38,405 nucleotides of DNA from a virus (lineage: Duplodnaviria; Heunggongvirae; Uroviricota; Caudoviricetes), in IMG/VR virus record IMGVR_UViG_2639762960_000007; one strand, given 5' to 3'. Both the position numbers and the translations under genes were made by a program. A model generated the notes under the pieces. The model did not search any database and was not told the origin of the DNA. It saw only the letters and a program-made list of their open reading frames with translations. This document shows, in pieces, positions 1-18,388 of this stretch (position 1 is the first letter of the stretch; each line of letters opens with the position of its first letter).

Positions 1-642
1 TTATTTATTGGCTACTGCATCAATACTTAAACTTTCAACGGAGACACCTTTGGTTTCAATTCCAATGGTGGCGATAGCAATTGCGACAATAATTGAAACA
101 GCCCCCAGAAGAATAAAGACTCCCGTTACGCCATAACTACTGAGCAGCACTGCAACGGCATAAGGCGCGGCAATACCACTGATTCGCCCTACCGCATTCG
201 CCAGACCGGAGCCACGGAGTTTGGCCTCTGTTGGCCAGATCTCAGGGACATACACTGCCGAGGCATAGCAAACGTACATATAGACGAAAGTAATCAGGAA
301 GAAACCAATCAGCGTTATGAGCAACATACTGGTTTGCAGTGAATAGATATATCCGAGCACCGCAATCAGGATTAATAGCCCCATCCCCATTGTTTTACGC
401 GGAATTTTATCCATCACCAGCATGGCAATAAAAATACCAAATGGCGCGCCAAACATACTCATGGTATTTAAAACAATCGAGTCTTTTAAATTAATTCCCT
501 GGGTCATGAATATCGTTGGCAACCAGTTAATTAGTGTGTACTGCACAACGTTCATGGCAATCAGCACACAAGAGCCTAATATCACGCGTTTCAGTGATGC
601 GCCGCGCGATAAATGCACTCTATCTTGTGCGATAAATGGCAT
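1..642 (-). CDS. MFS-family transporter, C-terminal half only (5'-truncated; probably a host gene interrupted by the prophage)
   Basis: Stop TAA at 1..3 (tta on plus strand). The 213-aa translation is about six hydrophobic helices, typical of the second half of a 12-TM MFS permease. An in-frame stop lies a few codons upstream of the first Met, so the N-terminal half is absent here. Confidence 0.6.
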   Translation of the reverse strand: MPFIAQDRVHLSRGASLKRVILGSCVLIAMNVVQYTLINWLPTIFMTQGINLKDSIVLNTMSMFGAPFGIFIAMLVMDKIPRKTMGMGLLILIAVLGYIYSLQTSMLLITLIGFFLITFVYMYVCYASAVYVPEIWPTEAKLRGSGLANAVGRISGIAAPYAVAVLLSSYGVTGVFILLGAVSIIVAIAIATIGIETKGVSVESLSIDAVANK

Positions 643-672
643 CCACGCGGCGTTTCATTATTTGAAAAAGAA

Positions 673-1245
673 TTACATTTCAGGTTGCGTTATGACAGTC
701 CCAACAGGGTGATAGCGGTAGATCGTTGACAGTCCAATATCATAGATAATTGCCAGCCGCTTTCTGTCATACCCTTTCTGGAGCAATCTTGCGATCTGCT
801 CATGCTGCTCCTTCGTCAGTTTCGGGCGACGTCCTCCAACTCTTCCTTGTGCTCGCGCAGCAGCCAGTCCTGCCAGCGTGCGCTCAACTATCAGTTCACG
901 CTCCATTTCTGCCAGTGCACCCATCATATGAAAAAAGAACCTTCCCATCGGAGTGCTGGTATCGATTGAATCCGTCAGACTGCGAAAATTGACACCTTTT
1001 GCGCGTAGCTCTTCTGTGAGAGCAATGAGGTGTTTCATTCTTCTACCCAACCGATCCAGCTTCCAGACCACCAATGTATCCCCTCTTTTAAGGCACTTTA
1101 AAGCGCGTTTCAGGCCTGGTCGTTCCGACTTGGTTCCGCTCATTTTGTCCTCAAAAATCTGTTCACATCCTGCGCACATTAATGCATTGCGTTGCAAATC
1201 TGTGTTTTGGTCATTTGTTGACACACGTATGTAGCCAATCAGCAT
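673..1245 (-). CDS. gin: Serine-recombinase DNA invertase (Gin/Pin/Hin/Cin family)
   Basis: ATG at 1243..1245 gives 190 aa starting MLIGYIRVSTNDQ (catalytic Ser motif) with a C-terminal HTH (RKRLAIIYDIGLSTIYRY). The longer track ORF starts at a non-ATG codon upstream. It lies next to the tail-fibre inverted repeats. Confidence 0.9.
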   Translation of the reverse strand: MLIGYIRVSTNDQNTDLQRNALMCAGCEQIFEDKMSGTKSERPGLKRALKCLKRGDTLVVWKLDRLGRRMKHLIALTEELRAKGVNFRSLTDSIDTSTPMGRFFFHMMGALAEMERELIVERTLAGLAAARAQGRVGGRRPKLTKEQHEQIARLLQKGYDRKRLAIIYDIGLSTIYRYHPVGTVITQPEM

Positions 1246-1311
1246 TAAAAATACTCCCTTTTGAGTGGTTAAAGTACTGAGATAATGTGGGGAGGATTTG
1301 AGAGATAAACG

Positions 1312-1510
1312 TTGGTTTGGGGGAAGGCTCTGCATTGCCTGTTGGTGTACCGGTTCCATGGCCCACCGCCACACCGCCAGCAGGCTGGTTAAAGTGCGAC
1401 GGGCGCGCCTTTACAAAAGAACAATATCCTGTTCTGGCCAGAGTCTACCCGACCCTCCGTCTTCCTGATTTACGCGGTGAGTTTATCCGTGGATGGGACG
1501 ACGGGCGCAA
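1312..1510 (+). repeat. Left arm of a ~199-bp inverted repeat flanking the invertible tail-fibre segment
   Basis: Sequence from ttggtttgggggaaggctctgcattgcc to gggacgacgggcgcaa matches the reverse complement of about 2730..2928; verified by eye over the ends and several internal blocks. Confidence 0.85.
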
Positions 1511-1829
1511 AGTTGATACAGGACGTAAGTTGCTGTCCGCACAAGGGGCAACGCTGTTAAGAACAGCAATGCTGGATTATTATAACCAGGACACTACGGG
1601 AACCTCGGGGATAGTCGGCATGGGATTCAACAATGAAGATTCCATTACAGACCTTCGTGAGGGCAGCTTTAAAATGCCGGACGGGACAACATTCAGCGAT
1701 CCTGTCATGGCAATGTCAGACAATGGTATGCAGGCTACTATTCTGACCTCTATCAGAAGCGGGTATGCGAAGGGTATCACTGTCAGACCCCGTAGCATTG
1801 CACTTAATTACATTGTGAGGGCAGTTTAA
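1317..1829 (+). other. Silent alternative tail-fibre C-terminal cassette (Sv'-like); no ATG, would be fused to the fibre gene after inversion
   Basis: Frame opens at TTG inside the inverted repeat. The first ~63 aa are identical to an internal stretch of the fibre (GEGSALPVGVPVPWPTATPPAGWLKCDGRAF...GWDDGRK), followed by a divergent 106-aa tail ending NYIVRAV (the expressed copy ends NYIVRAA). Confidence 0.7.
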
Positions 1830-2443
1830 TGAGTAACACTGCAGTTCTGGATGAAAACGGTATCGCCACTGTAGCGGGCGATATCACTGTATATCACTAT
1901 GACGAGGAAACCCGGGAATACACCTCATCCTCTGTGGAGTATCTCGCCCTTGGGGTGGGTACTCCGGCACATTCGTGCGCCGATGCACCGCCGGAGGCAA
2001 TTTCGGGTTACGTGGTTTGTCGGACTGCCACGCTGAACGGGTGGGAGCATGTGCCTGATCACCGCGGCGAGACGGTATACAGCACGGAGAACGGTAACCC
2101 CGTTCTGATTACCCAACCGGGTGATTACCCGGCGGACACCACCACAAAACAGCCGGCCACGCCATGGGATACCTGGAACGGTGAGGCGTGGGTAACCGAT
2201 ACTGAACGGCAGCGAGCCGCAGAACTGGAGGTTGCCAGACAGCAACGCCAGCAACGGGTGAAACAGGCGATGGCGTCCGTCGATCTTATCAACCTCAAAC
2301 TGCGGGCAGGTCGCAGTCTGACACCAGAAGAAACGGCAAAACTGAACGCCGTGCTGGATTATATCGACGAGCTGAACGCACTGGATATCAGCACGGCACC
2401 TGAAATCAGCTGGCCGGAAGCGCCACTGGCACTTGCCAGCTGA
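1829..2443 (+). CDS. Tail fibre assembly (chaperone) protein, Tfa / Mu U-like
   Basis: ATG at 1829 overlaps the TAA of the upstream cassette, with GAGG upstream. 204 aa with the typical Tfa C-terminal region (AKLNAVLDYIDELNALDISTAPEISWPEAP). Confidence 0.75.
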   Translation: MSNTAVLDENGIATVAGDITVYHYDEETREYTSSSVEYLALGVGTPAHSCADAPPEAISGYVVCRTATLNGWEHVPDHRGETVYSTENGNPVLITQPGDYPADTTTKQPATPWDTWNGEAWVTDTERQRAAELEVARQQRQQRVKQAMASVDLINLKLRAGRSLTPEETAKLNAVLDYIDELNALDISTAPEISWPEAPLALAS

Positions 2444-2449
2444 ACGGTA

Positions 2450-4042
2450 TCACGCCGCCCTCACGATATAGTTAAACGCGATATTGCGGGGGCGGGTTAT
2501 GTTAAAGAATGCTCCGTTTAATTCGGCTTTTGCGCGACTGTTTGTTCCACCCAGAATTGCGTACCACAAATAATCGCTACGGTAATTCCCCGCAAACACC
2601 TTATCGCCGCCATAGTCAATATTATTTCCGTTACTCATGTACGAGATATCCAGCGAAGAATCGTTATCGTCATGACCGCCGACCAGTGTACCTTTCTGCC
2701 ATGAAAGCAACTTACGCCCCTCGTCAATCTTGCGCCCGTCGTCCCATCCACGGATAAACTCACCGCGTAAATCAGGAAGACGGAGGGTCGGGTAGACTCT
2801 GGCCAGAACAGGATATTGTTCTTTTGTAAAGGCGCGCCCGTCGCACTTTAACCAGCCTGCTGGCGGTGTGGCGGTGGGCCATGGAACCGGTACACCAACA
2901 GGCAATGCAGAGCCTTCCCCCAAACCAAGGTAATTGAGGACATCTTTTATACTGCCCTTAGCGATAATCGCGCGACCAATAGCTGTAAGGGTTGCCAGCG
3001 CTGCGCGGTCTGCTCCGGTAAAATAAGGCAACCGATCTGCTGCAGTGGCAAGTCCTGCGAGAGCAGTGAGCGTGGCATCTGCCGGTTGTTTTCCGTTTGC
3101 CAGATCGTATGCAGCCTTGACCGCTTTCGGTGTGGCGGCCAGTATTTCAGACGTGCTGTTGATGGCACTGCTCAGTTGTACGGTGCCTTTTGCCGTCAGC
3201 GAGGCAGCAGGCACTCCCGTTATCTGACTCCACGGGTGAGTGTGGCTGACGGGCGCCTTGCCGGCTGCAAGGTCGTATGCAGCCTTGACCGCCTTCGGCG
3301 TGGCAGCCTCAGTTTCTGATTGACTGTCCGTGGCGCTGCTCAGTTGTACGGTGCCTTTTGCCGTCAGTGAAGCCGCAGGCACTCCCGTTATCTGACTCCA
3401 CGGGTGAGTGTGGCTGGCAGGCGCCTTGCCGGCTGCCAGGTCGTATGCAGCCTTGACCGCTTTCGGTGTGGCGGCCAGCGTTTCAGACGTGCTGTTGATG
3501 GCACTGCTCAGTTGTACGATCCCTTTACGGGTCGTTGTTGCATCCTGGGCTGTGTATTTTCCCCGGGCCAGATCATACGCGATTTTCACAGCCTTCGGCG
3601 TGGCAGCCTCAGTTTCTGATTGACTGTCCGTGGCGCTGCTCAGTTGTACGGTGCCTTTTGCCGTCAGTGAAGCCGCAGGCACTCCCGTTATCTGACTCCA
3701 CGGGTGAGTGTGGCTGGCAGGCGCCTTGCCGGCTGCCAGGTCGTATGCAGCCTTGACCGCTTTTGGTGTGGCGGCCAGCGTTTCAGAGGTGCTGTTGGTG
3801 GCACTGCTCAGTTGGGTGAACCCCTTAGCTGTCAGTGTCGCGTCCGGGTGGTTACGGGAACGTACGTGTTCAGCCAGTGACTGTGCGGCTTCCTCCGTTT
3901 TCTTCTTCAGCCATTTCGTCCTGTTTGCCAGTTGCCGGGGGGCTCGATTTGATATCCCGTCTGCACCACCCAGAACCGGATCTGATGTCTCCAGTTGATA
4001 GATATTTTCTTCCCACTTTTCTGTTTCATTCAGGTTTCCCAT
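2450..4042 (-). CDS. Tail fibre protein with tandem phage-fibre repeats; C-terminal ~93 aa lie inside the invertible segment
   Basis: ATG at 4040..4042 (the track start at 4048 is TTG); the upstream gene's TGA sits at 4045..4047. Repeated SHTHPWSQITGVPAASLTAKGTVQLSSAT..ATPKAVKAAYDLA units are fibre-repeat-like. Lies directly downstream of the baseplate J/I genes. Confidence 0.85.
   Translation of the reverse strand: MGNLNETEKWEENIYQLETSDPVLGGADGISNRAPRQLANRTKWLKKKTEEAAQSLAEHVRSRNHPDATLTAKGFTQLSSATNSTSETLAATPKAVKAAYDLAAGKAPASHTHPWSQITGVPAASLTAKGTVQLSSATDSQSETEAATPKAVKIAYDLARGKYTAQDATTTRKGIVQLSSAINSTSETLAATPKAVKAAYDLAAGKAPASHTHPWSQITGVPAASLTAKGTVQLSSATDSQSETEAATPKAVKAAYDLAAGKAPVSHTHPWSQITGVPAASLTAKGTVQLSSAINSTSEILAATPKAVKAAYDLANGKQPADATLTALAGLATAADRLPYFTGADRAALATLTAIGRAIIAKGSIKDVLNYLGLGEGSALPVGVPVPWPTATPPAGWLKCDGRAFTKEQYPVLARVYPTLRLPDLRGEFIRGWDDGRKIDEGRKLLSWQKGTLVGGHDDNDSSLDISYMSNGNNIDYGGDKVFAGNYRSDYLWYAILGGTNSRAKAELNGAFFNITRPRNIAFNYIVRAA
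2730..2928 (-). repeat. Right arm of the ~199-bp inverted repeat (inside the tail-fibre coding sequence)
   Basis: Reverse complement matches 1312..1510. Confidence 0.85.
3050..3870 (-). repeat. Tandem near-identical coding repeats inside the tail-fibre gene
   Basis: Blocks such as ccgtcagtgaagccgcaggcactcccgttatctgactccacgggtgagtgtggctggcag recur at about 3361 and 3661 (300 bp apart), with a related copy near 3210. Confidence 0.8.
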
Positions 4043-4044
4043 AA

Positions 4045-4623
4045 TCAACTGCTCCCGTGGTTATAACTGCCATCATGGATGGCGGTATTGTTATAGCGAA
4101 TGGCCACAGACTGATACTCCAGGCTGGCCAGATGGCAGCGGGCCGGTGCAAATGCAGCCAGCGTCTGACGCAGCATCGCGGCCTGATCGTTAGTAATGGG
4201 CTGTTTCAGAATAACGCGATAAACTGCCCAGGCGGCTGCATCTCCATGAACAAACAGTCCGTTATAGCTGCGATTGCCGTCGTAACTGAGACGACCTGTG
4301 CCTTCAATCAGATCCACTTCACCAAAGCCAAAACGGCGGATAACTTCCCGGATTGACCACGGCGTCCCTTTATACCGGTGCAGTTCGATGGCTGCTTTTA
4401 TAAGCATGCGGCGAACATCGTCCGATTCCGCCAGCTCCCAGCCATCGCCAGACAGTGAGAACTGCTCGCCCAGCCATGGCAGCGCGGAACTGTCGACGAT
4501 ATCGACGAGAAAGACCATCAGTACGCTCAGGTCGATGTTATCCAGCCGTCCTGCCAGTCTTCCCAGCGTCCTGAGACTGATATCACCCTCAAGCGGTGGC
4601 GGGAGTTGTAATGGCTCAGTCAT
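4045..4623 (-). CDS. Baseplate protein, P2 gpI-like
   Basis: ATG at 4621..4623 (track start at 4635 is GTG). Placed between the J-like gene and the fibre gene; translationally coupled to both neighbours. Confidence 0.65.
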   Translation of the reverse strand: MTEPLQLPPPLEGDISLRTLGRLAGRLDNIDLSVLMVFLVDIVDSSALPWLGEQFSLSGDGWELAESDDVRRMLIKAAIELHRYKGTPWSIREVIRRFGFGEVDLIEGTGRLSYDGNRSYNGLFVHGDAAAWAVYRVILKQPITNDQAAMLRQTLAAFAPARCHLASLEYQSVAIRYNNTAIHDGSYNHGSS

Positions 4624-5719
4624 CAGACACTCCACTCATGTTAAGTGTGATCGCCGTACAGTTTGCCCATTCGTTTTCTGCCACCACCCTCAGTGCCGGT
4701 GTCACCAGTTCAACCTGGTACACCCCGGAAACGGACAATGCACTGATAATCTGGCTGGGGACAATATCACGCCCCAGCGTGGCGGCACGTGATGCCACCC
4801 AGTTCTGTATGGCGCTGTTAGCGGCATCTTTTACAGACCTGGCATCCTGATCACGATAGATCGTAATCCTGGCTTCAATGGTGTAATCCACCTTCACTGG
4901 TGTTTTAGCCCGCACTGTATCAGTGAGTGGCCTGACTTTCTCATCAGAGCAGAAACTCTCTACCAGCGTGAGAACACCGCCGTCCGGCAGACCGGTACTG
5001 AGCAGCGGATACAGATCTACGGTCCCGGGAACCGGGGAAAGCACAGCAACATCGACAATGTTGGGATGGGCCTGCATGGCATGAAAGCGGTATGCGCCAC
5101 GGCTTCCGGCATTGGTGAATGACTCCGGGGCCAGCCTGATACGCTCCCGGAGCCTGTCATCGTCTTCCTGTTCTGAACCGCCGGAACTGGCCGTCAGATT
5201 GCTCACCAGCAGGTCGACGTTATCAATCTCATCGAGTAACTGACTGACCTGCGCAGGTTGCCAGCCGTTACCAGCGGTACCGGGTTCGGTACAGGTGGAC
5301 GTGACATTGACCAGCAGCAATCCGGCCTTCAGTACCACATCTGTATCGGTGGCAAAAATAACGCTGTCGGAAGCGCTGACGCGGGTGCCTGCCGGGATCA
5401 GCACATCAATGGCCAGTGCCTCATCTACGGAGAACTGGAGCGTGGTAGTGGCAGGCTGCGCGGCAAGACGGTATACACCGACCAGTTCACCGAGGTAATC
5501 AATCATCGGCTCACGGGCAAAGGCGACCAGATTCTGCTTTGCTGCCTCCTGTACCGCAACCCTGACCAGCATTTCGCGATAGGCCCACAGATCAATCAGC
5601 AGACGCTCTGCCTGTGCCGGGTACAGCGTTTTGCCGGTATCCGCTTCATACTTCGCAATCATTTCTGCCGTGATTTTGTCGGCATCGCGTTCAATAAAAT
5701 CGGGTTCTGTCAGCGCCAT
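4616..5719 (-). CDS. Baseplate wedge protein, P2 gpJ-like
   Basis: 367 aa; ATG at 5717..5719; order W-J-I-fibre as in P2-type baseplates. Confidence 0.8.
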   Translation of the reverse strand: MALTEPDFIERDADKITAEMIAKYEADTGKTLYPAQAERLLIDLWAYREMLVRVAVQEAAKQNLVAFAREPMIDYLGELVGVYRLAAQPATTTLQFSVDEALAIDVLIPAGTRVSASDSVIFATDTDVVLKAGLLLVNVTSTCTEPGTAGNGWQPAQVSQLLDEIDNVDLLVSNLTASSGGSEQEDDDRLRERIRLAPESFTNAGSRGAYRFHAMQAHPNIVDVAVLSPVPGTVDLYPLLSTGLPDGGVLTLVESFCSDEKVRPLTDTVRAKTPVKVDYTIEARITIYRDQDARSVKDAANSAIQNWVASRAATLGRDIVPSQIISALSVSGVYQVELVTPALRVVAENEWANCTAITLNMSGVSDD

Positions 5720-6057
5720 AGCAGCTCCTGAGTCCGGGTCTGTCCGTCTGAGCCTTTCCAGCTCACCCGGAGCGTAAGATGTTCGCCGTCGACGGCGGGT
5801 TTAACTGACATAAGCTGGCAGCGGGGCTCCCAGCGCCGGATGGCATCGACGGATTCGCGAACCACATGCGGAATGGCCCGGTCGACAGGCCAGTCGATAT
5901 AAAGGTGCAGATTGCTGCCGAACTCCGGGCGATGCGGGTCGCTGCCGCGGGGAGTCCGCAGGATGATTTGGATGGACTGCCGGATATCATCCAGCCCCCT
6001 GACGATTTCGCCGGAAGCCTGCAGAGCTGGTTGCCAGAATACTGAGGTCGTTTTCAT
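5710..6057 (-). CDS. Baseplate protein, P2 gpW / T4 gp25-like
   Basis: 115 aa; ATG at 6055..6057; position between V-like and J-like genes. Confidence 0.75.
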   Translation of the reverse strand: MKTTSVFWQPALQASGEIVRGLDDIRQSIQIILRTPRGSDPHRPEFGSNLHLYIDWPVDRAIPHVVRESVDAIRRWEPRCQLMSVKPAVDGEHLTLRVSWKGSDGQTRTQELLWR

Positions 6058-6113
6058 GGAGGCAGTATTGCCCCCGGGAAGTAAGCGCCGATATTAAAGG
6101 CGTTTAAGAAGGT

Positions 6114-6641
6114 TCAATGGGAATGGTGATTAGAGTTCTGACCATCGGCAAATATGTCACCCGTTGCATGGGCGCTTCCGTTGATTTCCAGATCACCGTT
6201 GAGTGTCGCGTTGCCGTTGATTGTGGTAACTCCCGTGAGGTCAATGCTTTTCCCTTCCAGTGAGATATCGGCGGCAACCTCCACCACGATACGCTCAATA
6301 CCTCCTCTGACCGTCAGCGTATGGGTCGCGCGGTTATAACTGAACTCCGCGCCATCAGCGTACTTCGTGCCCCGGACGTTTTTATCACTGAACGGTGGTT
6401 TATCGACGTCTGAATACACCGCGCCCAGAATAACACCATCCTCGCCGTTGGCATCGAGCAGCACCTCAACCTGCTCCCCCACGTCAGGGAGCCAGTAATC
6501 TTTGTTATCCTGGGTATTGCGCTGCAGCACGTTAAGCCAGTTTGTGCGCAGGTTATCGCATTCAGGCAGACGAACGCGGGCCTGAACCCTGTCGGCATCA
6601 ACGGCACTGACCGTACCGACCTGACGAGTGACACCAGTCAT
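6114..6641 (-). CDS. Baseplate spike/assembly protein, P2 gpV-like
   Basis: 175 aa; ATG at 6639..6641 overlapping the upstream gene's stop; Gly/Asp-rich C-terminus with His-rich tip typical of V-type spikes. Confidence 0.75.
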   Translation of the reverse strand: MTGVTRQVGTVSAVDADRVQARVRLPECDNLRTNWLNVLQRNTQDNKDYWLPDVGEQVEVLLDANGEDGVILGAVYSDVDKPPFSDKNVRGTKYADGAEFSYNRATHTLTVRGGIERIVVEVAADISLEGKSIDLTGVTTINGNATLNGDLEINGSAHATGDIFADGQNSNHHSH

Positions 6642-7810
6642 TTTTTCTTCTCTCTTATTACTGTGGACGTGCTGCCGTCCGGTTTATAGATGGTCAGCGT
6701 CCGGGTTTTGCCGGTTTTTTTACCTTTCTTCGCCTTGCCCTGTGTGACCGGCCCCCGTGCCACTTCCAGCTCTGTGGTGTAGCCGCTGTTACGCTCAAAC
6801 GCATGGAGGGCAGTGGTTATGAGCCATGGCCCGGATAACTGCCCAAAACCCACCAGTTCAATTTTGTTGCCTGCTGTCAGTTGAGGTGTTCCCGTCAGCG
6901 TCAGGGAGCCGTTCTGCTGGTATTCGTTATGTCTGGCCAGTGCTGAATCCGCTTTAATCCGGGCACTGTCCGGGTCGCTGACGCGGCTGTTAACTTTAAG
7001 TGAGTCAGCGCTGGTAACCTTACCACCTTTGAGCTTTTTGTCGCTTTCACGGGTACCACCATCAGCTTCGTAGACGATCAGTTTTTTACTGCTGCTTTTC
7101 TGGTGTTTTACCTTTGCAGATTTATAGACCCGGTTGATGGTGTCACGCAGGGAAAAGCGGGCCACATCCTGCGGTTTTAACTGCCTGACCGGCTCCTGAC
7201 TGCGCAGTGTGGCCAGATGAGAAAAAATCAGCTGGTCACTGACCACTTTCACTGCATAACCATACTCGCTGGCCAGCCGGCGCAGAAAACCCACGTCGGT
7301 TTCAGCATACTGGGTCACCCGGTCGATTCTGATGGACTCAATGCTGCCCACCAGTTTCAGTCGGTGCTTTCTGGCAATCCGCCCCGCAACAGCTGCCAGC
7401 GTGGTGTTCTCAAAACCACGACTGGTTTTAGTCCGCAGGGCACTGTTAACCGAGGTGGCCACCCCACGGATAGAAACAACGGAAGCGGGCGAACTCACTT
7501 CGATCTCGTCTATAGAGAACGTACCGCAGGACAGCAGCTTCTCGCCCTGATAGCCCATTTTCAGCGTCAGCGTGTCACCCTTGCCCGGATACCATTTATC
7601 CAGCCAGCGGCCATCGGTGTCGTCCAGCTCCACCTCAATGGTATCGGACTCATTTTTGATGTTATCGCTCCAGGTCACACGGGTGACATAAGGCGCGATA
7701 TCAGAGGTGATGTTTTTCTGCAGATACCACAAAGTGAACACCGGTGTCAGCACATCGCTGACGCCGGTTAACGCTGATGTGACTTGCGCAGTGCTGTTTA
7801 TCTCAGCCAT
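6638..7810 (-). CDS. Tail protein, P2 gpD-like (late control D family)
   Basis: 390 aa; ATG at 7808..7810; follows X and U as in P2/Mu-like tails; Lys-rich C-terminus. Confidence 0.75.
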   Translation of the reverse strand: MAEINSTAQVTSALTGVSDVLTPVFTLWYLQKNITSDIAPYVTRVTWSDNIKNESDTIEVELDDTDGRWLDKWYPGKGDTLTLKMGYQGEKLLSCGTFSIDEIEVSSPASVVSIRGVATSVNSALRTKTSRGFENTTLAAVAGRIARKHRLKLVGSIESIRIDRVTQYAETDVGFLRRLASEYGYAVKVVSDQLIFSHLATLRSQEPVRQLKPQDVARFSLRDTINRVYKSAKVKHQKSSSKKLIVYEADGGTRESDKKLKGGKVTSADSLKVNSRVSDPDSARIKADSALARHNEYQQNGSLTLTGTPQLTAGNKIELVGFGQLSGPWLITTALHAFERNSGYTTELEVARGPVTQGKAKKGKKTGKTRTLTIYKPDGSTSTVIREKKK

Positions 7811-8010
7811 GGGGCAATATCCTCTTCTGTACGGGCTTCTTCAGCCTCAATCACCGGGATCAGTAACAACAGCCCGGAGGGCAGCACCGGCGTGATGGCC
7901 ACGTGCGGATTGGCGGCAATAATCCGGGGATAGCCCAGCGGGTCGCCGTAGTACTGCCATGCCAGCGAATCCCAGCGCTCTCCGTCACGGGTAACATGTT
8001 CAAGAAACAT
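7798..8010 (-). CDS. Tail protein X-like
   Basis: About 70 aa; ATG at 8008..8010 (track start is GTG one codon upstream); ATGA overlap with the U-like gene. Confidence 0.65.
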   Translation of the reverse strand: MFLEHVTRDGERWDSLAWQYYGDPLGYPRIIAANPHVAITPVLPSGLLLLIPVIEAEEARTEEDIAPWLR

Positions 8011-8894
8011 CACACACTCCTCGTCAGTATTCTGGCGGCCATTGCACTTAATCCCGGAGACATGCGGTTGAATGCTGTGCCGGCGGCGTTAAGCTGCCCG
8101 GAAACGGTATCCAGAGCACCTGCAATATTTCTTTTGTCCACACCACTCAGCGCAGACTGTGCCTGCTGTACATACGTGACTGCTTCGCTGGCTGTTCTGG
8201 CCAGACTGATGGCATCGGGCATGGATTCAGAGAGTGCGTTAAACGCCGGAACACTTTTCCCCAGAGCCCCGGAGATATTACCCAGTCCGCTCATCAGCCC
8301 CGGCACACGGGTCAGTGCGACAACGGGGTTATCCTTCATTTTCTGTGTCACCCGAACGGCGCTGATAGTGGTCTGGAGTACAGACTGCGCCTGTTTCGCA
8401 TAGTTGACGCCGTTGCGGATGAACTGCGCCACCCCTGAAGGTGAAGGTATGGCACCGGAGACCGCCCCGACACCCGGGAGCTTCGTGCGTATTGCCGGTG
8501 GTTGCAGAGTATTTTTCGGGTCACCGGTGTATTCCCGGAGAGACACGGTGGCACTGACAGCCAGCACGTTGCCGGTACTGTCAGTCTGCTCGCTGGTTGC
8601 AGTCACATCGGTAATCACGAACCAGCCGCGATAGTCACCGTTGCCGAAGACCAGCGCCAGTGCCTGATGGGCTTTCATGGCTGTTCGCAGTCTCGCCAGC
8701 TCCACATCGGGTACACAATAATGCTGATGGAAAACCAGAGTTATCTGGATTTCGTCCAGCCTGTCGCCGACGAACTGCAGGCCAGGCTTACCCCCGATGC
8801 GGGCATGCTCCGCATAATCGACGCCGAACGTGGCCTCGAAGCCGTCCCAGTAGGTAATCAGCTCAAACTCAATATCACCCAGTACGGCAAACAT
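8010..8894 (-). CDS. Tail protein, P2 gpU-like
   Basis: 294 aa; ATG at 8892..8894; immediately downstream of the tape measure gene. Confidence 0.65.
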   Translation of the reverse strand: MFAVLGDIEFELITYWDGFEATFGVDYAEHARIGGKPGLQFVGDRLDEIQITLVFHQHYCVPDVELARLRTAMKAHQALALVFGNGDYRGWFVITDVTATSEQTDSTGNVLAVSATVSLREYTGDPKNTLQPPAIRTKLPGVGAVSGAIPSPSGVAQFIRNGVNYAKQAQSVLQTTISAVRVTQKMKDNPVVALTRVPGLMSGLGNISGALGKSVPAFNALSESMPDAISLARTASEAVTYVQQAQSALSGVDKRNIAGALDTVSGQLNAAGTAFNRMSPGLSAMAARILTRSV

Positions 8895-11845
8895 CAGCGG
8901 TACTCCTTACGTTGTTTCTGAGCCAGCAGACGCTCCAGCATTTTTTCCAGCTCATGCAGACTCATATTCAGAGCACCAGTCAGTCCTGCAGGCGCTGTGG
9001 TTTCCCTGCCATTGAGGAAAAACTGAGGATTAAAGCTGACCTGGATACCACCAGACGTTCCACCGCCGGTTGCAGCTGCACCACGGCCTGAATATCCGGC
9101 AGCCATGATTTCAGGCGAGGGGATACGGGGAACATCCGGTGTCATCTCATTTGCCAGACGTTGCCCTGGTAAAATCGATGTCCGGGTGGAGAGCGGGATA
9201 GCGGGCATGGAAGACAAACTATTGATTACGGCTCCGATCGCATTTTTAGCAGACGACATAAACCCGTTGATATCGGGCAACGGCATACTGAAGCGAACAC
9301 CTGAAGTGTTATCCCGTATTTCTGGCCCCTGAATGCTCACGGGCATTCTGGGGAGCAGTTCACTGGCCATTCGCTGCCCGGCCAGAGCTGCAAGCGGAGT
9401 GGTCCGCTGCAGGCCAATGGCGGCCCCCTGCGCGATATTGTCACCAAAGCCCATAAACACGCGGCTCGGCGAATGAATACCCAGCTTTTCACTGAACCAG
9501 CCACTGATGCTGTCACCCATTCCGGTTACACTGGATTTGAGCGACTCCCATTTGTTTTTGATACCGTTAATCAGACCGTCGACAAGATGGCCACCGAAGT
9601 CGGTGAACTTTGCCGGCAGATCAACACCAAGATATTTCAGCGCAGCTGCAAAGGCTTTATAGAGCAGACCTGCCGGCGACCAGTTAATCAGCAGCTTACC
9701 AGTTCCCGCGATACCGCCGTTAAAGGCTTCCTGAATGTCAGCCCAGCACTGTTTAAACCAGCTACTGATGCTGTCACCCATTCCGGTTACACTGGATTTG
9801 AGCGACCCCCATTTGTTTTTGATACCGTTAATCAGACCGTCGATAAGATGGCCACCGAAGTCGGTGAACTTTGCCGGCAGAGCAACGCCGAAATATTTCA
9901 GCGCAGCCGCAAAGGCTTTATAGAGCAGGCCTGCCGGCGACCAGTTAATCAGTAACTTACCAATTCCCACAATGCCGCCGTTAAAGGCTTCCTGAATGTC
10001 TGCCCAGCGCTGTTTAAACCAGCCACTGACTGCCCCCCAGTTGCGGTAGATAAGGTAAGCTGCTGCCGCGACAGCGGTGATAACGAGACCGATGGGATTC
10101 ATCATCAGCGCACGTCCAATCCAGAGAACAGCACGTCCGGCGAGCATAATTCCGCGAACCAGCCCCCCGGAGAGCACGCCACTCAGTGTTCTGGCTCCTC
10201 TGGCGACGGCGCTAAATCCGGTCACCAGCCAGCGGAGCTTACCGCCTTGCCCCAGTGCGAGCGACAGACGAAGCCAGTTGGCCCGAAGTAAAACAGCATT
10301 TTTCCAGACACTTACAAAGGGGGAAATAAGGAGATTCAGCCCCAGTTTGAGACCAACAGTCGCTATCTTAATCGCAAGGAGCGCACTGATGAGCTTAAAA
10401 GCCCCACTGACAAATTGCGGGTGAGTCGCTACCCAGTGTTTTGCCCCCTGAATGAGTGGAAGCAGTTCCTGAGTCAAAGAAATAAAAGATGGAGCTAATT
10501 GATCGCCCAGCGTAATTGCCAGATCGCGACTGCTGACCATAAGTGTTTTAGTGGCTTCAAGGGGAGATTTCAGCCGCTGATCATAAGCACTGGCAAGCAA
10601 ATCGTTATCCGCAGCCCTGAGAGCACCGGCACGGATCTCTCGATATCTGTCCATGTTGGCCAGCATCGGGCGGATAAATGCCATGACCTGCATATCCGCG
10701 AACATATCGCCCAGACCAAAGTTTTTCGCCAGAGCCTGAAGTGCCTCATCTCTTGCCGTATCATTCTTTATTTTCATGGCTGATTTGAAGCCGGCCAGCG
10801 CTTCGGGGCTTTTGGCATTGAGGTAACGTTCTATAACACTCAACATCCCTTCAATCGGAGAGATCCCCGCAGCTTTATAACTCGCAATAGATCCCTGCAA
10901 ATCAATACCCAGATCAGCAAACTGTTTCTGAGTATCGCGGGCAAAAATTTTGGTAAGAAAGTTTTTAAAATTATTGGCTGCTTCGTCGGTGGAACCTGCA
11001 CCGATTTTTGCTATCTGGAGACTGGCCCCGATTTCAGCAACAGCCTCTTTTCCACTGGCAATACCCGCCATCATTGGGGCCAGGGACTGCATCCACTTGA
11101 CCTGATCCGGGATTTCAAATGACCCCTGGTCACCGGCATAAGCCATAATATTCTGAACGGCACCAAAATCTCTGGCCGCACCTTTCAGGGAGTTTTGCCA
11201 GACTGCGGCCACTTTTGCCCAGTCCTGAGCAGACGTGCGTGTTGCCGTTGCCGCGCGGGCAATATCCGGCATCAGAAAACCGATATCTGACACATTATCA
11301 ATATTGTCGCTGATGAGTGAACCCACCGCCTCCTGCAGCTCATCCTGATACTGATTGTATTTAAGCGCCCAGCCTTTTATCTGTCCGGCAAGTGCATCCC
11401 GCGTTTTATTGTCATATTTTGCGGTGATCGACATATCAATCATTTTGTCCTGAAAAGACATGGACTGCTGAACGGCAGGGGAAACCGTATGATAAACAGT
11501 CTGTGCCATGCCATACGCTTCAATCCCCTGACCATACAGCGCCATGCGGTTAGCTTTCAGCGCATCACTGGTAGCGGATGCCGCTGACAGACGGCGCTGC
11601 TGGCGCTCAATTTGCTCCATGGTGCGGCTTACCCGCAGCAGCTCGCTGTTGAGATGCTGCATCCGGGAAGAACCCAGTTGACCATAACGTTCTGTTGCAC
11701 GGGTTAAAGCGTTCTGACGTTCCTGCAGGCGGCGTGAGGTATCGCTCAGGGAATCAAGCGCACGGCGGGTACCGCTCATTGCAGAACGGAATGTGCTGCC
11801 AATCATCCCGCCGATAACAACGCCGACTGAAAACTGTCCCGACAT
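8894..11845 (-). CDS. Tail tape measure protein
   Basis: 983 aa; ATG at 11843..11845; long helical N-terminus, hydrophobic central segments, internal tandem duplication; sits between the chaperone and U-like genes. Confidence 0.85.
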   Translation of the reverse strand: MSGQFSVGVVIGGMIGSTFRSAMSGTRRALDSLSDTSRRLQERQNALTRATERYGQLGSSRMQHLNSELLRVSRTMEQIERQQRRLSAASATSDALKANRMALYGQGIEAYGMAQTVYHTVSPAVQQSMSFQDKMIDMSITAKYDNKTRDALAGQIKGWALKYNQYQDELQEAVGSLISDNIDNVSDIGFLMPDIARAATATRTSAQDWAKVAAVWQNSLKGAARDFGAVQNIMAYAGDQGSFEIPDQVKWMQSLAPMMAGIASGKEAVAEIGASLQIAKIGAGSTDEAANNFKNFLTKIFARDTQKQFADLGIDLQGSIASYKAAGISPIEGMLSVIERYLNAKSPEALAGFKSAMKIKNDTARDEALQALAKNFGLGDMFADMQVMAFIRPMLANMDRYREIRAGALRAADNDLLASAYDQRLKSPLEATKTLMVSSRDLAITLGDQLAPSFISLTQELLPLIQGAKHWVATHPQFVSGAFKLISALLAIKIATVGLKLGLNLLISPFVSVWKNAVLLRANWLRLSLALGQGGKLRWLVTGFSAVARGARTLSGVLSGGLVRGIMLAGRAVLWIGRALMMNPIGLVITAVAAAAYLIYRNWGAVSGWFKQRWADIQEAFNGGIVGIGKLLINWSPAGLLYKAFAAALKYFGVALPAKFTDFGGHLIDGLINGIKNKWGSLKSSVTGMGDSISSWFKQCWADIQEAFNGGIAGTGKLLINWSPAGLLYKAFAAALKYLGVDLPAKFTDFGGHLVDGLINGIKNKWESLKSSVTGMGDSISGWFSEKLGIHSPSRVFMGFGDNIAQGAAIGLQRTTPLAALAGQRMASELLPRMPVSIQGPEIRDNTSGVRFSMPLPDINGFMSSAKNAIGAVINSLSSMPAIPLSTRTSILPGQRLANEMTPDVPRIPSPEIMAAGYSGRGAAATGGGTSGGIQVSFNPQFFLNGRETTAPAGLTGALNMSLHELEKMLERLLAQKQRKEYR
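9495..10016 (-). repeat. Two tandem ~261-bp direct repeats inside the tape measure gene, plus the start of a third
   Basis: actgatgctgtcacccattccggttacactggatttgagcga at 9503 recurs at 9764; the encoded 87-aa units (WFKQRWADIQEAFNGG...GMGDSIS) are nearly identical. Confidence 0.85.
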
Positions 11846-11920
11846 AGTGGTTAACCTCCGGGGAAGGTGAAAAGACGTGAGGGGATAACGCAGAACAGCC
11901 GCTACTGGCGGCTGTCTGTA

Positions 11921-12178
11921 CTATGATTTGTCGCCGTACTCGCTTTTTATTTGCTCTTCAGCCTGCTCCAGCCACATCTCCAGATCGTCAGTATCGAGGG
12001 CATCAATCTCCCCCGGCTGAAACCGGAACCATCTCGCCAGCAGCCCCTGCGCCTGCGTCAGCGCCCTGGTTGCTCTCACCCATCCCCGTGATGAGCTGAA
12101 ATCGTTTCTGTAACTGCAGGTAATCAGCCAGATCCATATTGTCGAGATCTTCCGGGAGAAGACCAGTACTGCGGGCAA
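11921..12178 (-). CDS. Out-of-frame extension ORF overlapping the 3' end of the tail chaperone gene (E'-like; putative frameshift product)
   Basis: ORF in the +1/-2 frame relative to the E-like gene, overlapping 12003..12178 and running to 11921. This is the standard position for a programmed frameshift in tail assembly chaperones. The slip site was not identified. Confidence 0.4.
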   Translation of the reverse strand: MPAVLVFSRKISTIWIWLITCSYRNDFSSSRGWVRATRALTQAQGLLARWFRFQPGEIDALDTDDLEMWLEQAEEQIKSEYGDKS

Positions 12179-12338
12179 TCAGCGGTTCGTCCCAGTCTGC
12201 CGGGTTTTTGCTGATTTTGCGCACCTGCTTCAGGTCTTTTACCGTCAGGCGTTTCAGTTCAACCAGCTCAATTCTGGTACCTGCAGCAGTGGTGAAGGGA
12301 TAAGACAATTTAAAAGTATCGGATGGGGTCTGTGACAT
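12003..12338 (-). CDS. Tail assembly chaperone, P2 gpE-like
   Basis: 111 aa; ATG at 12336..12338; lies just upstream of the tape measure gene with an overlapping second-frame ORF. Confidence 0.6.
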   Translation of the reverse strand: MSQTPSDTFKLSYPFTTAAGTRIELVELKRLTVKDLKQVRKISKNPADWDEPLIARSTGLLPEDLDNMDLADYLQLQKRFQLITGMGESNQGADAGAGAAGEMVPVSAGGD

Positions 12339-12435
12339 GATTGTGCTCCTGTGTAAGTTCAGGGCAGTATGTCGGGAGAAGCGCGTGACGGATATTAAAG
12401 GAGATTAAGAAGAAGGGGCCGGAGCCCCTGTGATG

Positions 12436-12717
12436 TCAGCAAGTGCGAAACCCCTTGCAGTTACGCAGGAAAGCGATGAGAAGCGTCTTTCCCTCAGATT
12501 TGCCGATGCCGGAGAACCAGTGGTCGGGAGGCTCCCATGCTTCAATCAAATCCGCCAGTTTGCGGGCCTTTGAACGTGTGCAGTCAATCGGGTCATTGGT
12601 TTTACGGGTATTAAAAAGGGTTTCCACCCCCGGAATATCAAGGAGGGTAAACCACGTACCATTTGACATGCCCAGTGCCGCACATCGTCCTCCTTTATCC
12701 GTCAGTTCAACACTCAC
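12436..12717 (-). CDS. Hypothetical small protein between tube and chaperone genes (doubtful)
   Basis: 93-aa ORF whose first codon is GTG; no recognisable motif; a similar-size ORF exists on the opposite strand, so coding status is uncertain. Confidence 0.25.
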   Translation of the reverse strand: MSVELTDKGGRCAALGMSNGTWFTLLDIPGVETLFNTRKTNDPIDCTRSKARKLADLIEAWEPPDHWFSGIGKSEGKTLLIAFLRNCKGFRTC

Positions 12718-12719
12718 CG

Positions 12720-13241
12720 TCAGCCCCCGATATTGATACGGTAGTCAGTCAGTTGATCAACACCGCCGACCCGGAAGATGTTGGCCAGATAGTCCAGTTG
12801 CAGCAGCTCTTCACCATCCAGTACCTGTCTGATATACGTGCAGGTGAAGCTACTGGAGAACTCGGCGTTCTCGTGCTGTTTGAACGTCCCCAGCGGGTTC
12901 TTCTTGAACATAATCGTCAGGAAGGTGACCAGCGGGATTTCGTCAATCAGCCCCTGCGAGCTGTAGCGCTGGACGCTGGAACGACACTGCAGTGCCAGCG
13001 ACCTGTACGGGTTCGCGGCAGACAGCATCGCATCGCGGTAAAAGCTGTTCCATTTGATTTCGCCTTCCAGTTTGTCAAAACCAGCCGGGAGTTCCACCTT
13101 ACCCACCATCCCCAGCGCCTTGTGTTCCTGCATAATCATGGAGACATCGGGGAGTTTAACTTCCTCAGCCCGTCCCAGCAGGTTAGTACCATCCAGATAG
13201 ATGTTGGCATTCGTGATGCGGTTTATCTCAATCTTTGACAT
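12720..13241 (-). CDS. Tail tube protein (P2 FII-like)
   Basis: 173 aa; ATG at 13239..13241 in ATGA overlap with the sheath stop; sheath-tube order. Confidence 0.8.
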   Translation of the reverse strand: MSKIEINRITNANIYLDGTNLLGRAEEVKLPDVSMIMQEHKALGMVGKVELPAGFDKLEGEIKWNSFYRDAMLSAANPYRSLALQCRSSVQRYSSQGLIDEIPLVTFLTIMFKKNPLGTFKQHENAEFSSSFTCTYIRQVLDGEELLQLDYLANIFRVGGVDQLTDYRINIGG

Positions 13242-14668
13242 CAGTTGCCCCCTTTCAGGGTTAACAGGTATTCCGAGGTGATCTCAGTCTCAAACGTCAG
13301 TCGCTCCAGCGGCGGTGGTGGCGTATATTTGTAGCTCAGCAACAGGTGCCCGGCGGCCAGCTCCGTCTCCGGATTGCGGGCCGGATCAAACCAGCAACGG
13401 AAGCCCAGTACCGCACCATCACCAGTCATTTTGCGACCGTAGGCGTTGACCGACTCCGTCAGTGCATCAATCAGCGCCTGAGTAATCGGCATGTCGATGT
13501 ACTGCTGGCTGAAATAACGAATGGACTCGTTGATCACATCACCGGTGCGGCGAACGTTCTCAAAGTTACGCATATGGGTGACCGTTGGCCATGCTGCCGT
13601 CCGGTTACCCCACAGACGAAGGCCGCTGCCGTAACTGCTGAATACCGTGGTGATCCCCTGTTCGTTAAGCAGGTTCACCTCACTCTGCGGGTCATCAATC
13701 ATCGCGGACAGCTGGCGCTCCACGCCGGTGATCCCCAGAATCTCCTGATTGGAGGATGACCACCAGTAGCCCTTGTCCAGATCGACTCTGGCACGCAGAC
13801 CTGCTGCACGCTGGCTGAGCGGCTCCAGACGCTCTGTGTTTGTCACCGGGTCATATACCTTCACATGCGGATAGCACAGACGGACGCGGTCGGAGCTGGT
13901 ATTGAAGTTGATGGTGCCTTCCGGGCCACGACCTGCCAGAGCCTGTGCAAAGGTGGTACCGACAGGCGCATCAATGTAGGTTACCGCGCCCAGCTTCTCT
14001 GCCATGGCGATAAGCTCAACTGCGACACTCTTCTGGGTGCAGAACACCGGCGCAATCAGAATTTTGGCGAAATAGCCGTACAGGTTGAAGCTGTCGTTAA
14101 GCAGCTTCATGCCGGTTCGGTTTCCGGCGCTGTTCACCCCGCCGATGATGTCCGCCGCAGTCACCTTCGACGGGTCCGCGTACTCATAGCTCACCTTCAC
14201 GCTGCCACCGGCCTCAATAGCCTTGCCCAGGTTCGTGAGCACACCCGCCTGCGCATCAACACGGTAGTCCGTGTTCGCCGTGTGGGTGGTGCTGCCTTCA
14301 CTGTTTTTCACCACCACATTAGCGACAACCGGATGCGCCAGTCTGGCCTGCCCTGTCGATTTGTCAAAGGTAACCACCTCATCCTCGATCGCCGTTTTAT
14401 GTTTCGCCGGGTCGAGGACGTTAATGACCAGAACGGTGCCTGCACCATGGTCATAAATCGCATCCAGCGCCTGCGGAATGGTAAAGCCGGTGAACTGGCT
14501 GCCAAATGCCGCTGCGTCTTTCTCAGACAGGCACTGTACCAGCGTATTGACATCCCCCATCGGGGCGGTACCAATCAGGCCAATAACGGCAGATTTCACC
14601 GTTTTAACCGGGCGGGCACCGTTTTCCACCTCAATGGTTTCGGGACCATGCAGATAGTTAGCTGCCAT
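13241..14668 (-). CDS. Contractile tail sheath protein (P2 FI-like)
   Basis: 475 aa; ATG at 14666..14668 preceded by GGAGG; size and position typical of myovirus sheath. Confidence 0.9.
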   Translation of the reverse strand: MAANYLHGPETIEVENGARPVKTVKSAVIGLIGTAPMGDVNTLVQCLSEKDAAAFGSQFTGFTIPQALDAIYDHGAGTVLVINVLDPAKHKTAIEDEVVTFDKSTGQARLAHPVVANVVVKNSEGSTTHTANTDYRVDAQAGVLTNLGKAIEAGGSVKVSYEYADPSKVTAADIIGGVNSAGNRTGMKLLNDSFNLYGYFAKILIAPVFCTQKSVAVELIAMAEKLGAVTYIDAPVGTTFAQALAGRGPEGTINFNTSSDRVRLCYPHVKVYDPVTNTERLEPLSQRAAGLRARVDLDKGYWWSSSNQEILGITGVERQLSAMIDDPQSEVNLLNEQGITTVFSSYGSGLRLWGNRTAAWPTVTHMRNFENVRRTGDVINESIRYFSQQYIDMPITQALIDALTESVNAYGRKMTGDGAVLGFRCWFDPARNPETELAAGHLLLSYKYTPPPPLERLTFETEITSEYLLTLKGGN

Positions 14669-14909
14669 GGGTGTCCTCCGTTTTCACTTCGCTGTCACTG
14701 CTGCTTCTGCGCTTTGGTGACTGCACAGCCGGTGTGCCGGCGGGTTTAGTCTCTTCAGGTACCGGCGTCAGATGTTTCAGCGCCACCAGTACCTTCACGT
14801 AGTCATGCTCCTCCGGCAGGGAAACCGTCTTCCCCGGCCAGAGCAGGATTTCGGTTCCGTCCGACAGCGTGACGCCGCTGGCCGGGCCGGAATAGCGGTA
14901 TTCTTTCAT
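14658..14909 (-). CDS. Small conserved phage protein preceding the sheath (DUF2635-like)
   Basis: ATG at 14907..14909 (track start is GTG); ATGA overlap with the upstream gene; conserved position in Mu-like tails. Confidence 0.5.
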   Translation of the reverse strand: MKEYRYSGPASGVTLSDGTEILLWPGKTVSLPEEHDYVKVLVALKHLTPVPEETKPAGTPAVQSPKRRSSSDSEVKTEDTHGS

Positions 14910-15373
14910 CACTCGCTTTCCTCATAGTTCACTTCGGTTAACAGCGGGCCGGACGGTAAATCGCTGTCTTCGATAAAGACGCTTTCAGTCGCGAAGTCGA
15001 GGGCGTACTGCCACAGCCCCCTGACTTCACCGATAAACACCTCGCGGGTCAGCCAGATACGGCGGCGGCAGCCGGGCGGGGTGTGGCCACCGAGAATGCG
15101 GCGGACAGCATCCAGGACATTAATCGCCCCTTTTTTACCGTTGAGCTGGCGGAAGACCACCGTGACGCAGAGCTGGATAGTCTGAGACTGGATCACCGCA
15201 CCGGTATCATCCGGCCTGTCAAAGCGCGAACCGGCATAGCTCAACAGCAACGCGCCAACCGGATGGTTCAGGCGATATTCAGCCGGTTTCTCCGGGAAGT
15301 ACTCCACCTGCAGTTGCGGCAGCTTCTCGCGTAACCGGGCCAGTACCGCATCAAGGACGGGCAGAACGTTCAT
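14909..15373 (-). CDS. Mu gp37-like head-tail joining/completion protein
   Basis: 154 aa; ATG at 15371..15373; position after the gp36-like gene. Confidence 0.55.
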   Translation of the reverse strand: MNVLPVLDAVLARLREKLPQLQVEYFPEKPAEYRLNHPVGALLLSYAGSRFDRPDDTGAVIQSQTIQLCVTVVFRQLNGKKGAINVLDAVRRILGGHTPPGCRRRIWLTREVFIGEVRGLWQYALDFATESVFIEDSDLPSGPLLTEVNYEESE

Positions 15374-15819
15374 CAGTATTTCTCCAGTAAACCGTCACGA
15401 CCGCCGAAAGTGGCCGGGCGACTGCGTACACGAAACTCGCCAGGCTCAGGCACATCTTTCTGAGTGGACGGCAGCCCCAGCGTGAGCCTGTTATCACGTA
15501 ACTCCCTGAGTTGCCGCAGCGCTTCTTTGTGGTCATCCTTCACCGTATCCGGGAGGTCACCTTCCGGGCGGCGGGCGTAGAGCCGGTAACGGACCAGCGT
15601 GATGGCAATGTCCCGCAGAACAGTCGGTATCTCTGCCAGTGGCAGGATATAGCGTCCGCGCAGATGGGCATCAATCAGCTCGTCGGCATAGCGGATACAG
15701 CTGTCCACCACACGGGTATTCACTGTTGCAGGCGAGTCGAAGTCCATCTCTTCACTGGTGAGTTCGATAAGCGTCCGCTCCGGCACCTGCGCAAGCAAAT
15801 CCTCCAGGGTGCAGTACAT
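15373..15819 (-). CDS. Mu gp36-like protein
   Basis: ATG at 15817..15819 gives 148 aa starting MYCTLEDLLAQVPERTLIELT; the track ORF extends upstream with no obvious start signal. Confidence 0.55.
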   Translation of the reverse strand: MYCTLEDLLAQVPERTLIELTSEEMDFDSPATVNTRVVDSCIRYADELIDAHLRGRYILPLAEIPTVLRDIAITLVRYRLYARRPEGDLPDTVKDDHKEALRQLRELRDNRLTLGLPSTQKDVPEPGEFRVRSRPATFGGRDGLLEKY

Positions 15820-15820
15820 G

Positions 15821-16159: not shown

Positions 16160-16168
16160 AACGCCTCC

Positions 16169-17122: not shown

Positions 17123-17136
17123 GATTTCTCCTTAAA

Positions 17137-18252: not shown

Positions 18253-18388
18253 TTTGCTGTCCCGCGTTATGTTGTCGGAGACAGTTTGTGAGAAATGCAG
18301 GCCCGGCGATTTTAATCTGCTTTAGAAAACATCAGGGGAGAAGGACAGGGAAAGCAATGCGGTGAACCGGAAGCGGTTATAAAACAGA

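Follow-up and report, generated by a model that had tools for sequence, protein, structure and literature searches.

A probable BcepMu/B3-type transposable prophage in Escherichia coli ydjK and the architecture of its ends

BcepMu is a transposable phage whose genome is organized in two divergent gene clusters, encodes a transposase placed in the Tn552/IS1604 group, and ends in terminal CA dinucleotides (PMC2771037). It does not carry a tail-fibre inversion system (PMC2771037). TG...CA termini are typical of the BcepMu-like group (PMC2628397). The DNA described here, referred to as the window, is the whole stretch of 38,405 nucleotides that was analysed. With a probability of roughly 0.92, the window from position 595 onward is one end of a BcepMu/B3-type prophage, 38,007 bp long, that entered the E. 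coli gene ydjK at codon 263/264 by DDE transposition and duplicated the target sequence TTTCAG. This is a known kind of element in a routine insertion, and the architecture of its ends is a modest refinement; current understanding is not overturned by these results.

An earlier note on this DNA, made from the sequence alone, described a prophage end abutting a truncated MFS transporter gene and placed the phage terminus at a motif resembling a Mu transposase site, just beyond a DNA invertase gene. The first part of this description is sound, as the open reading frame holds only the C-terminal part of the transporter. The truncated gene is E. coli ydjK, of which 197 of 459 residues (263-459) are left. 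Megablast of window 1-598 gives a ydjK match of up to 99.8% in 4,259 complete E. coli genomes, with the annotation taken from CFT073, and the CFT073-type ydjK is identical to bases 1-594. The features at the junction are as follows:

1..594, minus strand: C-terminal fragment of ydjK, an MFS transporter (residues 263-459, with the stop codon at 1-3), from megablast and alignment with intact ydjK.
589..594, no strand: left copy of the 6-bp target-site duplication TTTCAG, from comparison of intact ydjK with the right junction that public assemblies show for this insertion.
595..596, plus strand: terminal dinucleotide 5'-TG of the phage end, the first base common to all independent insertions.
595..38405, no strand: BcepMu-type transposable prophage with its tail-fibre/invertase end at 595, running 196 bp past the window, from the common terminus, right-end mapping and gene organization.
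1..642, minus strand: chimeric open reading frame of 213 aa, with 16 phage codons (642..595, MPFIAQDRVHLSRGAS) in frame with 197 C-terminal ydjK codons, from the list of open reading frames, junction mapping and comparison with YdjK.

The junction lies at 594/595 by base-level alignment, with host DNA up to 594 and phage DNA from T595, where it begins with 5'-TG. The alignment set the window and intact ydjK against seven insertions at other loci, to which one in fliC was later added. All phage copies begin TGATGCGCCGCGCGATAAATG... at the position equal to window T595, and the base before that position differs among insertions (G, C, T or A). In other E. coli, the common terminus TGATGCGCC... 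adjoins yfaL, irp2, gcd, fadL, ecpC, a rimK-family ligase gene, idi and fliC, and the same phage end is found at nine or more independent loci. Intact ydjK reads ...CGCGTTTCAG/TAATACTCC across the junction, where the slash marks the insertion point, and ...CGCGTTTCAGTAATACTCC at the duplication site. In a megablast search with bases 1-1300, the phage match starts at 579-591 where other genes adjoin, and the ydjK/phage junction of the window is found in none of 5,426 complete E. coli genomes; the megablast match to ydjK ends at 598. The phage therefore ends 56 bp outside the start of the motif (651), an outcome that the earlier note had named in advance as contradicting its placement of the terminus.

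The chimeric open reading frame at 642..1 most likely arose by accident, when the insertion joined phage-end DNA to the 3' part of ydjK. An in-frame stop lies at 655..657, as first reported (tca, which is TGA on the minus strand). Gene calls give exactly this left-junction protein on at least 18 contigs of public assemblies, GCA_002461695.1 among them. The stop codon of the invertase was also correctly placed at 673 and occupies 673-675. The gap of about 30 bp given for the interval holds for the distance from the ATG of the chimeric frame (642) to the invertase stop, which is 30 bp, but not for the phage DNA between that stop and the terminus T595, which measures 77 bp (595-672). The elements within and beside this interval are:

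600..621, plus strand: end site 1, a probable transposase-binding site whose core GCGATAAAT occupies 606-614 (positions 12-20, counted from the terminus), with the same core at the same distance at the other end and at both BcepMu ends.
623..644, plus strand: end site 2, whose core GCGATAAAT occupies 629-637 (positions 35-43, counted from the terminus), at a spacing of 23 bp from site 1.
651..677, plus strand: box 3, an arm TTTCA (653-657) followed by the dyad TGAAA-N5-TTACA (663-677), overlapping the invertase stop (673-675).

Read inward, the two ends of the E. coli phage, like those of BcepMu, carry TGA at positions 1-3 and G(C/A)GATA(A/T)(A/T)T at 12-20 and 35-43, and the B3 ends carry a degenerate form of these site cores. 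A pattern built on the TGA and the site cores recovers at least 120 phage ends in IMG/VR. Conservation of the site 1 and site 2 cores in this set is by construction, as the cores are part of the search pattern, and only BcepMu, B3 and the two end variants in E. coli support it independently. The recovered ends fall into two classes: tail-side ends are GC-rich at positions 5-11, with Mor nearby in none and an invertase in 12, and mor-side ends are purine-rich at positions 5-11, with Mor nearby in 26 and an invertase in none. Both GCGATAAAT sites are probably bound by the transposase to build the transpososome.

Box 3 is also conserved, and none of its conserved positions belongs to the search pattern. 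Over the region of window 651-677, an alignment of 44 distinct tail-side ends has TT.C-N9-AA-N5-TT invariant or nearly so, and the consensus of the box is GTTTCA...TG.AA..GAATT.CA. The window dyad TGAAAAAGAATTACA at 663-677 includes the invertase stop codon, and the TTTCA arm forms a second dyad with TGAAA. The dyad TG[ACT]AA-N5-TT[AG]CA occurs at position 68-69 in 15 of 48 tail-side ends and at 86-88 in 21 of 42 mor-side ends, with a frequency of about zero in shuffles. The motif singled out in the earlier note, CGTTTCATTATTTGAAAAAG, was located at 648..667 and actually lies at 651..670. By sequence comparison, it is the outer two-thirds of box 3 and not the terminus, and the retention of box 3 in about 45 diverse relatives suggests that it is functional. 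All 77 bp from the invertase stop to the terminus would appear to be cis-acting end DNA.

The dyad in 651-677 could instead act as an RNA or single-stranded DNA hairpin, such as a terminator for the invertase gene, and not as a protein site. Just past the invertase stop, TTTCA-N5-TGAAA forms a perfect inverted repeat of 5 bp, and a perfect dyad of at least 5 bp is found at the same place in 21 of 46 relatives, where shuffles predict 6.4. However, the arms pair at a rate of 78.6% in 44 relatives, where shuffles give 76.9% and 87 of 500 shuffles score as high, and no T-run follows the dyad. The distance from the box to the terminus is also fixed whatever gene adjoins it and whichever way that gene is oriented, including in BcepMu, whose last gene points inward, and a related dyad is found at a fixed distance (86-88) at the opposite end. 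A hairpin is therefore unlikely, and box 3 is read as a protein-binding site because its arms pair no better than column composition predicts; it is probably bound by the transposase or by an accessory protein. Readings of box 3 as an IHF site, a promoter or a terminator were considered by eye and rejected, as the spacing or flanks did not fit.

The second phage end defines the size of the element and its target duplication. A continuation of ydjK was sought within the window and is absent from it, because the mor-side terminus lies 196 bp past the window end. In relatives with the same mor-side variant, phage DNA ends ...CATTTATCTCATGTCTGATCA-3' and is followed by unrelated host DNA; the mor-side terminus of the element is ...GTCTGATCA-3', which gives the whole element its length of 38,007 bp. 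Four other insertions for which both ends were fetched carry the 6-bp duplications TTTAGC, TCTTCG, GTCACG and CTCAGA.

The duplication in ydjK was approached at the protein level. A 6-bp duplication predicts a 5' fragment consisting of YdjK 1-264 followed by the phage terminal TGA, and duplications of 4, 5 or 7 bp predict other C-terminal tails. The predicted 264-aa protein is found exactly on 42 contigs in a collection of 15 billion proteins (for example AJM73952.1, E. coli RS218), and the proteins predicted for 4-, 5- and 7-bp duplications are not found in the same collection. At one YdjK 1-264 locus, the right-junction DNA in window orientation reads ...CATGTCTGATCA/TTTCAGTAATACTCCTGTCAG, and in public assemblies the right junction reads ...CATGTCTGATCA/TTTCAGTAATACTCC, which is ...GATCA/TTTCAG-TAATACTCC. 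At this locus, the phage DNA carries the genes for a 53-aa protein, a 210-aa protein, Mor and GemA, and the host DNA carries ydjL; both junctions are present in one sample, SRR32145690. The junction was reached in public assemblies by exact-protein look-ups; searches of IMG/VR, GTDB genomes and JGI metagenomes for an exact pattern of the expected right junction gave no match, nor did a search of IMG/VR for the left one. As read from assemblies with identical junction proteins, the event is a clean insertion of the 38,007-bp element with a 6-bp TTTCAG duplication. The earlier note had proposed looking for a duplication of 5 bp; the value is 6 bp here and in each of the four other insertions.

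Deletion or rearrangement beside the prophage, for example by recombination between two prophage copies, would also leave ydjK cut at this point. Such events are known for this phage: in strain B36, yfaL lies on one side of the prophage and ycaL on the other, and the genome has three matching places. The second junction of the present insertion is also outside the window. Nevertheless, assemblies with the identical left-junction protein have the right junction, the 5' part of ydjK, ydjL and a perfect 6-bp duplication, which makes a rearrangement very improbable and favours simple insertion.

The prophage has the gene layout of a BcepMu-type phage. Its late genes, from lysis to tail fibre, all occupy the minus strand, between about 25.5 kb and 1.3 kb. 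The plus strand carries a divergent operon, which begins at about 29.4 kb with HTH proteins and DUF3102, continues with an rve transposase, an AAA+ ExeA-like protein, Gam, GemA and Mor, and ends near the far terminus. Regions matching the mor side are found in 640 of 5,426 complete E. coli genomes, and an Rfam scan of the whole window gave no match. The genes that bear on identity are:

30696..32465, plus strand: DDE (rve) transposase of the BcepMu/B3 type, 589 aa, with rve as its only Pfam match.
32476..33642, plus strand: AAA+ (ExeA-like) transposition ATPase, counterpart of BcepMu gp08, from Pfam AAA_22, the ExeA family annotation of relatives and the annotation of BcepMu gp08 as 'DNA transposition protein'.
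37095..37493, plus strand: Mor-family transcription activator near the mor-side end (Pfam Mor, 1e-43), in the same place as BcepMu gp01 and B3 ORF1.
673..1245, minus strand: DNA invertase of the Gin/Cin/Pin family, 190 aa, the last prophage gene (Pfam Resolvase, 8e-51, and HTH_7, 1e-12).
1309..2931, no strand: invertible tail-fibre segment between inverted repeats of 229 nt (1309-1537 and 2703-2931), carrying an assembly gene and alternative C-termini for the fibre.

The transposase shares 68.5% identity with BcepMu gp09 over 98% of the protein and 56.6% with Pseudomonas B3 TnpA. Mu is absent from its tblastn phage matches at 1e-5, no MuA chain is among its PDB matches even at E<=10, and Pfam detects no MuA domains in it.

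The resemblance to Mu at the end of the element was evaluated with a consensus for Mu transposase sites, YGTTTCAYTNNAARYRCGAAAA, which was then scored on the real Mu right end and gave 19/20 for R2, 15/20 for R1 and 19/20 for R3. R3 of Mu is in inverted orientation at positions 56-77. Of the 20 specified positions of YGTTTCAYTNNAARYRCGAAAA, the motif at 651 agrees with 14, and it is oriented like Mu R1 and R2. Sites scoring 14 or better number 19 in the window, so that the match alone is at chance level for 38 kb; by the tests applied, the motif is part of a conserved box and probably not a MuA site. At the true terminus, the first 20 window bases match the Mu right end at 15 of 20 positions. 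The tail-side family consensus matches the Mu right end (attR) at 10/11 and 16/20 positions, including 8 of 9 at positions 3-11, which are outside the search pattern.

A prophage of the Mu type, moved by MuA, with its end marked by the MuA-site-like motif at about 648-670 and a 5-bp duplication, is scarcely credible. The score and orientation of the motif are in its favour, as are an invertase that is 77% identical to Mu Gin and the presence of Mor, GemA and Gam homologues. It is contradicted by the terminus, which is 595 in every independent insertion, by the 6-bp duplication, by a transposase with neither MuA domains nor detectable MuA similarity, by a gene order that is not that of Mu, and by the equally good consensus matches elsewhere in the window. 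The Mu-style insertion first proposed is accordingly right in being transpositional and not site-specific, but the transposase and layout are of the BcepMu type and not of Mu. Many prophages do interrupt genes at fixed sites, yet integration by a site-specific integrase with ydjK as the attachment site has a negligible probability, as other strains have the same phage end at no fewer than nine loci, all insertions examined have 6-bp duplications that are unrelated to one another in sequence, and the prophage has a DDE transposase and AAA+ partner and, by Pfam, no integrase.

The three end elements of the BcepMu/B3-type prophage lie approximately where R1, R2 and R3 lie in Mu: the two sites span about 6-27 and 29-50, and box 3 spans 57-83. 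It is possible, although doubtful, that BcepMu/B3-type ends in general carry a third cis element, the dyad TG(A/C)AA-N5-TT(A/G)CA at 68-69 on the tail side and 86-88 on the mor side, which with the two GCGATAAAT sites would reproduce the R1-R2-R3 spacing of Mu. If true, this spacing and the near-identity of the terminal 11 bases to Mu attR would mean shared ancestry or convergent design of the BcepMu-type and Mu transpososomes, despite transposases without detectable similarity.

The invertase and the adjoining invertible segment occupy the tail-side end. In relatives, this serine recombinase is annotated as a recombinase, WP_000904922.1. The invertible segment measures 1,623 bp, and its inverted repeats are 96% complementary. 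The tail-fibre inversion system works, because the segment is reversed in strain B36. The interval from the invertase to the phage end contains no gene, and hence no mom, in agreement with the earlier note. That note had also called the invertase unusually close to the terminus. It is indeed the last phage gene, but relatives have the same arrangement: an invertase ends about 80-115 nt from the terminus in 12 of 52 tail-side family ends in IMG/VR, and six of these 12 terminal invertases are merely 71-74% identical to that of the window. As terminal invertases are found in such distant relatives, ending in an invertase and lacking mom is the norm in this enterobacterial branch.

The element moves by transposition, as its TG...CA ends, 6-bp duplications and many sites establish, and its insertion disrupts ydjK. 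In the proposed mechanism, the rve transposase would bind sites 1 and 2 at each end, and its AAA+ partner may help with target capture, as in other Mu-like systems. Box 3 may bind the second DNA-binding module of the transposase, or a small phage or host protein, during assembly of the transpososome; alternatively, it may have a role in packaging.

Exact boundaries are now fixed for a prophage family present in roughly one in eight complete E. coli genomes, and for each such insertion gene callers report two artefactual "MFS transporter" proteins. "Mu-like" E. coli prophages are two mechanistically different families, with 5-bp and 6-bp duplications and different transposases. The conserved three-element ends are concrete targets for testing how BcepMu-type transpososomes assemble.

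BcepMu (Bcepmuvirus, with relatives such as phiE255) resembles the window phage in its transposase (68.5% identical) and ExeA-like ATPase partner. It also shares two divergent clusters, with mor and gemA at one end and P2-like tail genes toward the other, as well as TG...CA termini, site cores at 12-20 and 35-43, and a sub-terminal box. The two phages differ in host, which is Burkholderia for BcepMu and E. coli for the window phage, and in cargo genes. The terminal slot in BcepMu contains an acyltransferase gene, whereas the window phage has a Gin-like invertase and an adjoining invertible fibre segment there.

Mu (Muvirus) and Sp18-type prophages share with the window phage a transposable, temperate myovirus lifestyle, insertion at many sites and TG...CA ends. 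They also share a Gin-type invertase, an invertible tail-fibre segment near one end, and Mor, GemA and Gam homologues. Unlike Mu, the window phage is without MuA or MuB homologues, and its early operon runs opposite to the late genes and ends in mor at the far terminus. The Mu map is collinear (c, ner, A and B on the left, then the late genes, with gin-com-mom on the right), and that of the window phage is not. Target duplications are 5 bp in Mu and 6 bp in the window phage and the four other insertions. The distance from gin to the end is 1,044 bp in Mu, which includes com and mom, and about 4.4 kb in Sp18, in contrast to 77 bp without com or mom in the window phage. Sp18 of E. coli O157 Sakai has MuA and MuB at one end and the invertase followed by com-mom at the other; it was considered as the same phage and rejected, as it is a true Mu-type prophage with MuA/MuB and mom.

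Pseudomonas phage B3 (Beetrevirus) has a transposase 56.6% identical to that of the window phage and the same inverted early operon. Its tail-side end has CGTTTCGTGTGCGGCAAAAGAATTTC at position 56, in which 18 of 26 bases match box 3 of the window. B3 differs in being a siphovirus with unrelated tail genes, in having no invertase, and in its more degenerate site-1 and site-2 cores. Tn552/IS1604-type elements are small transposons and not phages; Tn552 generates duplications of 6-7 bp, which would fit the 6 bp seen here.

The two ends of this prophage share a property that bears on how the interrupted host gene is annotated. TGA is the inward-read start of both phage termini (window 595-597, and 2293-2295 of L148, the locus carrying the mor-side terminus), so that when the reading frame fits, translation of an interrupted gene stops at once at the phage end. 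In the 5′ fragment of ydjK the last codon is exactly number 264 and the phage TGA comes directly after it; the 264-aa "MFS transporter" and the 213-aa chimera are both stored in databases as ordinary proteins.

The mor-side end (window 37494-38405 plus 196 bp beyond it) contains additional cargo that is missing from the variant in E. coli strain B36:

~37537-37570, terminator-like hairpin
37608-38240, 210-aa open reading frame
38244-38405, minus strand, 53-aa open reading frame

The 210-aa product has no match in Pfam or PADLOC, and the cargo-bearing variant is found in ~114 complete E. coli genomes. Across IMG/VR loci of this phage family (L021-L140), mor-side ends contain GGGA/GGAA-rich repeats at positions 45 to 85; beyond these, a TGCAA-N5-TT(G/A)CA-N5-GTGAA block with strong conservation starts at 86-88. 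This block is not present in that form at the cargo-bearing mor-side end of the window phage.

A tail-fibre switch lies near the opposite terminus:

1309-2931, invertible tail-fibre segment bounded by 229-nt inverted repeats (96% complementary)

These inverted repeats are unusually long and code for a stretch common to both alternative fibre C-termini, and a gix/cix-like sequence (reverse complement TTCCCCCAAACCAACGTTTATCTC) lies at the outer edge of the repeat, at ~1303-1326. In B36 the segment is in the opposite orientation relative to the window. The tail-fibre gene (2450-4048, minus strand) contains a ~100-aa unit in 3-4 tandem copies (…TAKGTVQLSSATDSQSETEAATPKAVKAAYDLAAGKAPASHTHPWSQITGVPAASL…), and the B36 annotation breaks the equivalent region into several pseudogene fragments, suggesting repeat-number variation or assembly trouble. 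The tape-measure gene (8894-11845) contains ~290-bp internal direct repeats at 9495-10047, visible as off-diagonal BLAST matches to B36, where this gene is annotated as frameshifted.

The B36 prophage copy (L009, NZ_LR130545.1 1713500-1760000) has yfaL at one flank and ycaL-cmk-rpsA at the opposite flank; three places in the B36 genome match the prophage. Together, the mismatched flanks and multiple matches suggest a chromosomal rearrangement through recombination between prophage copies.

A low-GC cargo region (26459-29248; GC 0.42-0.44 versus ~0.57 in the rest of the window) adjoins the repressor and is not in the B36 phage copy. It encodes a 401-aa protein with a weak match to KwaA of the Kiwa defence system (E 8e-5) and a 335-aa nucleoid-associated protein of the NA37/YejK type (E 1e-80); the region is a possible defence or silencing module. 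A modification gene occupies the neighboring interval:

25699-26469, D12-class adenine methyltransferase, with the lysis genes on one side and the immunity region on the other

This Dam-like enzyme is not a Mom homologue. It may protect against restriction as mom does in Mu, which is reported for other Mu-like prophages without mom (PMC3299994).
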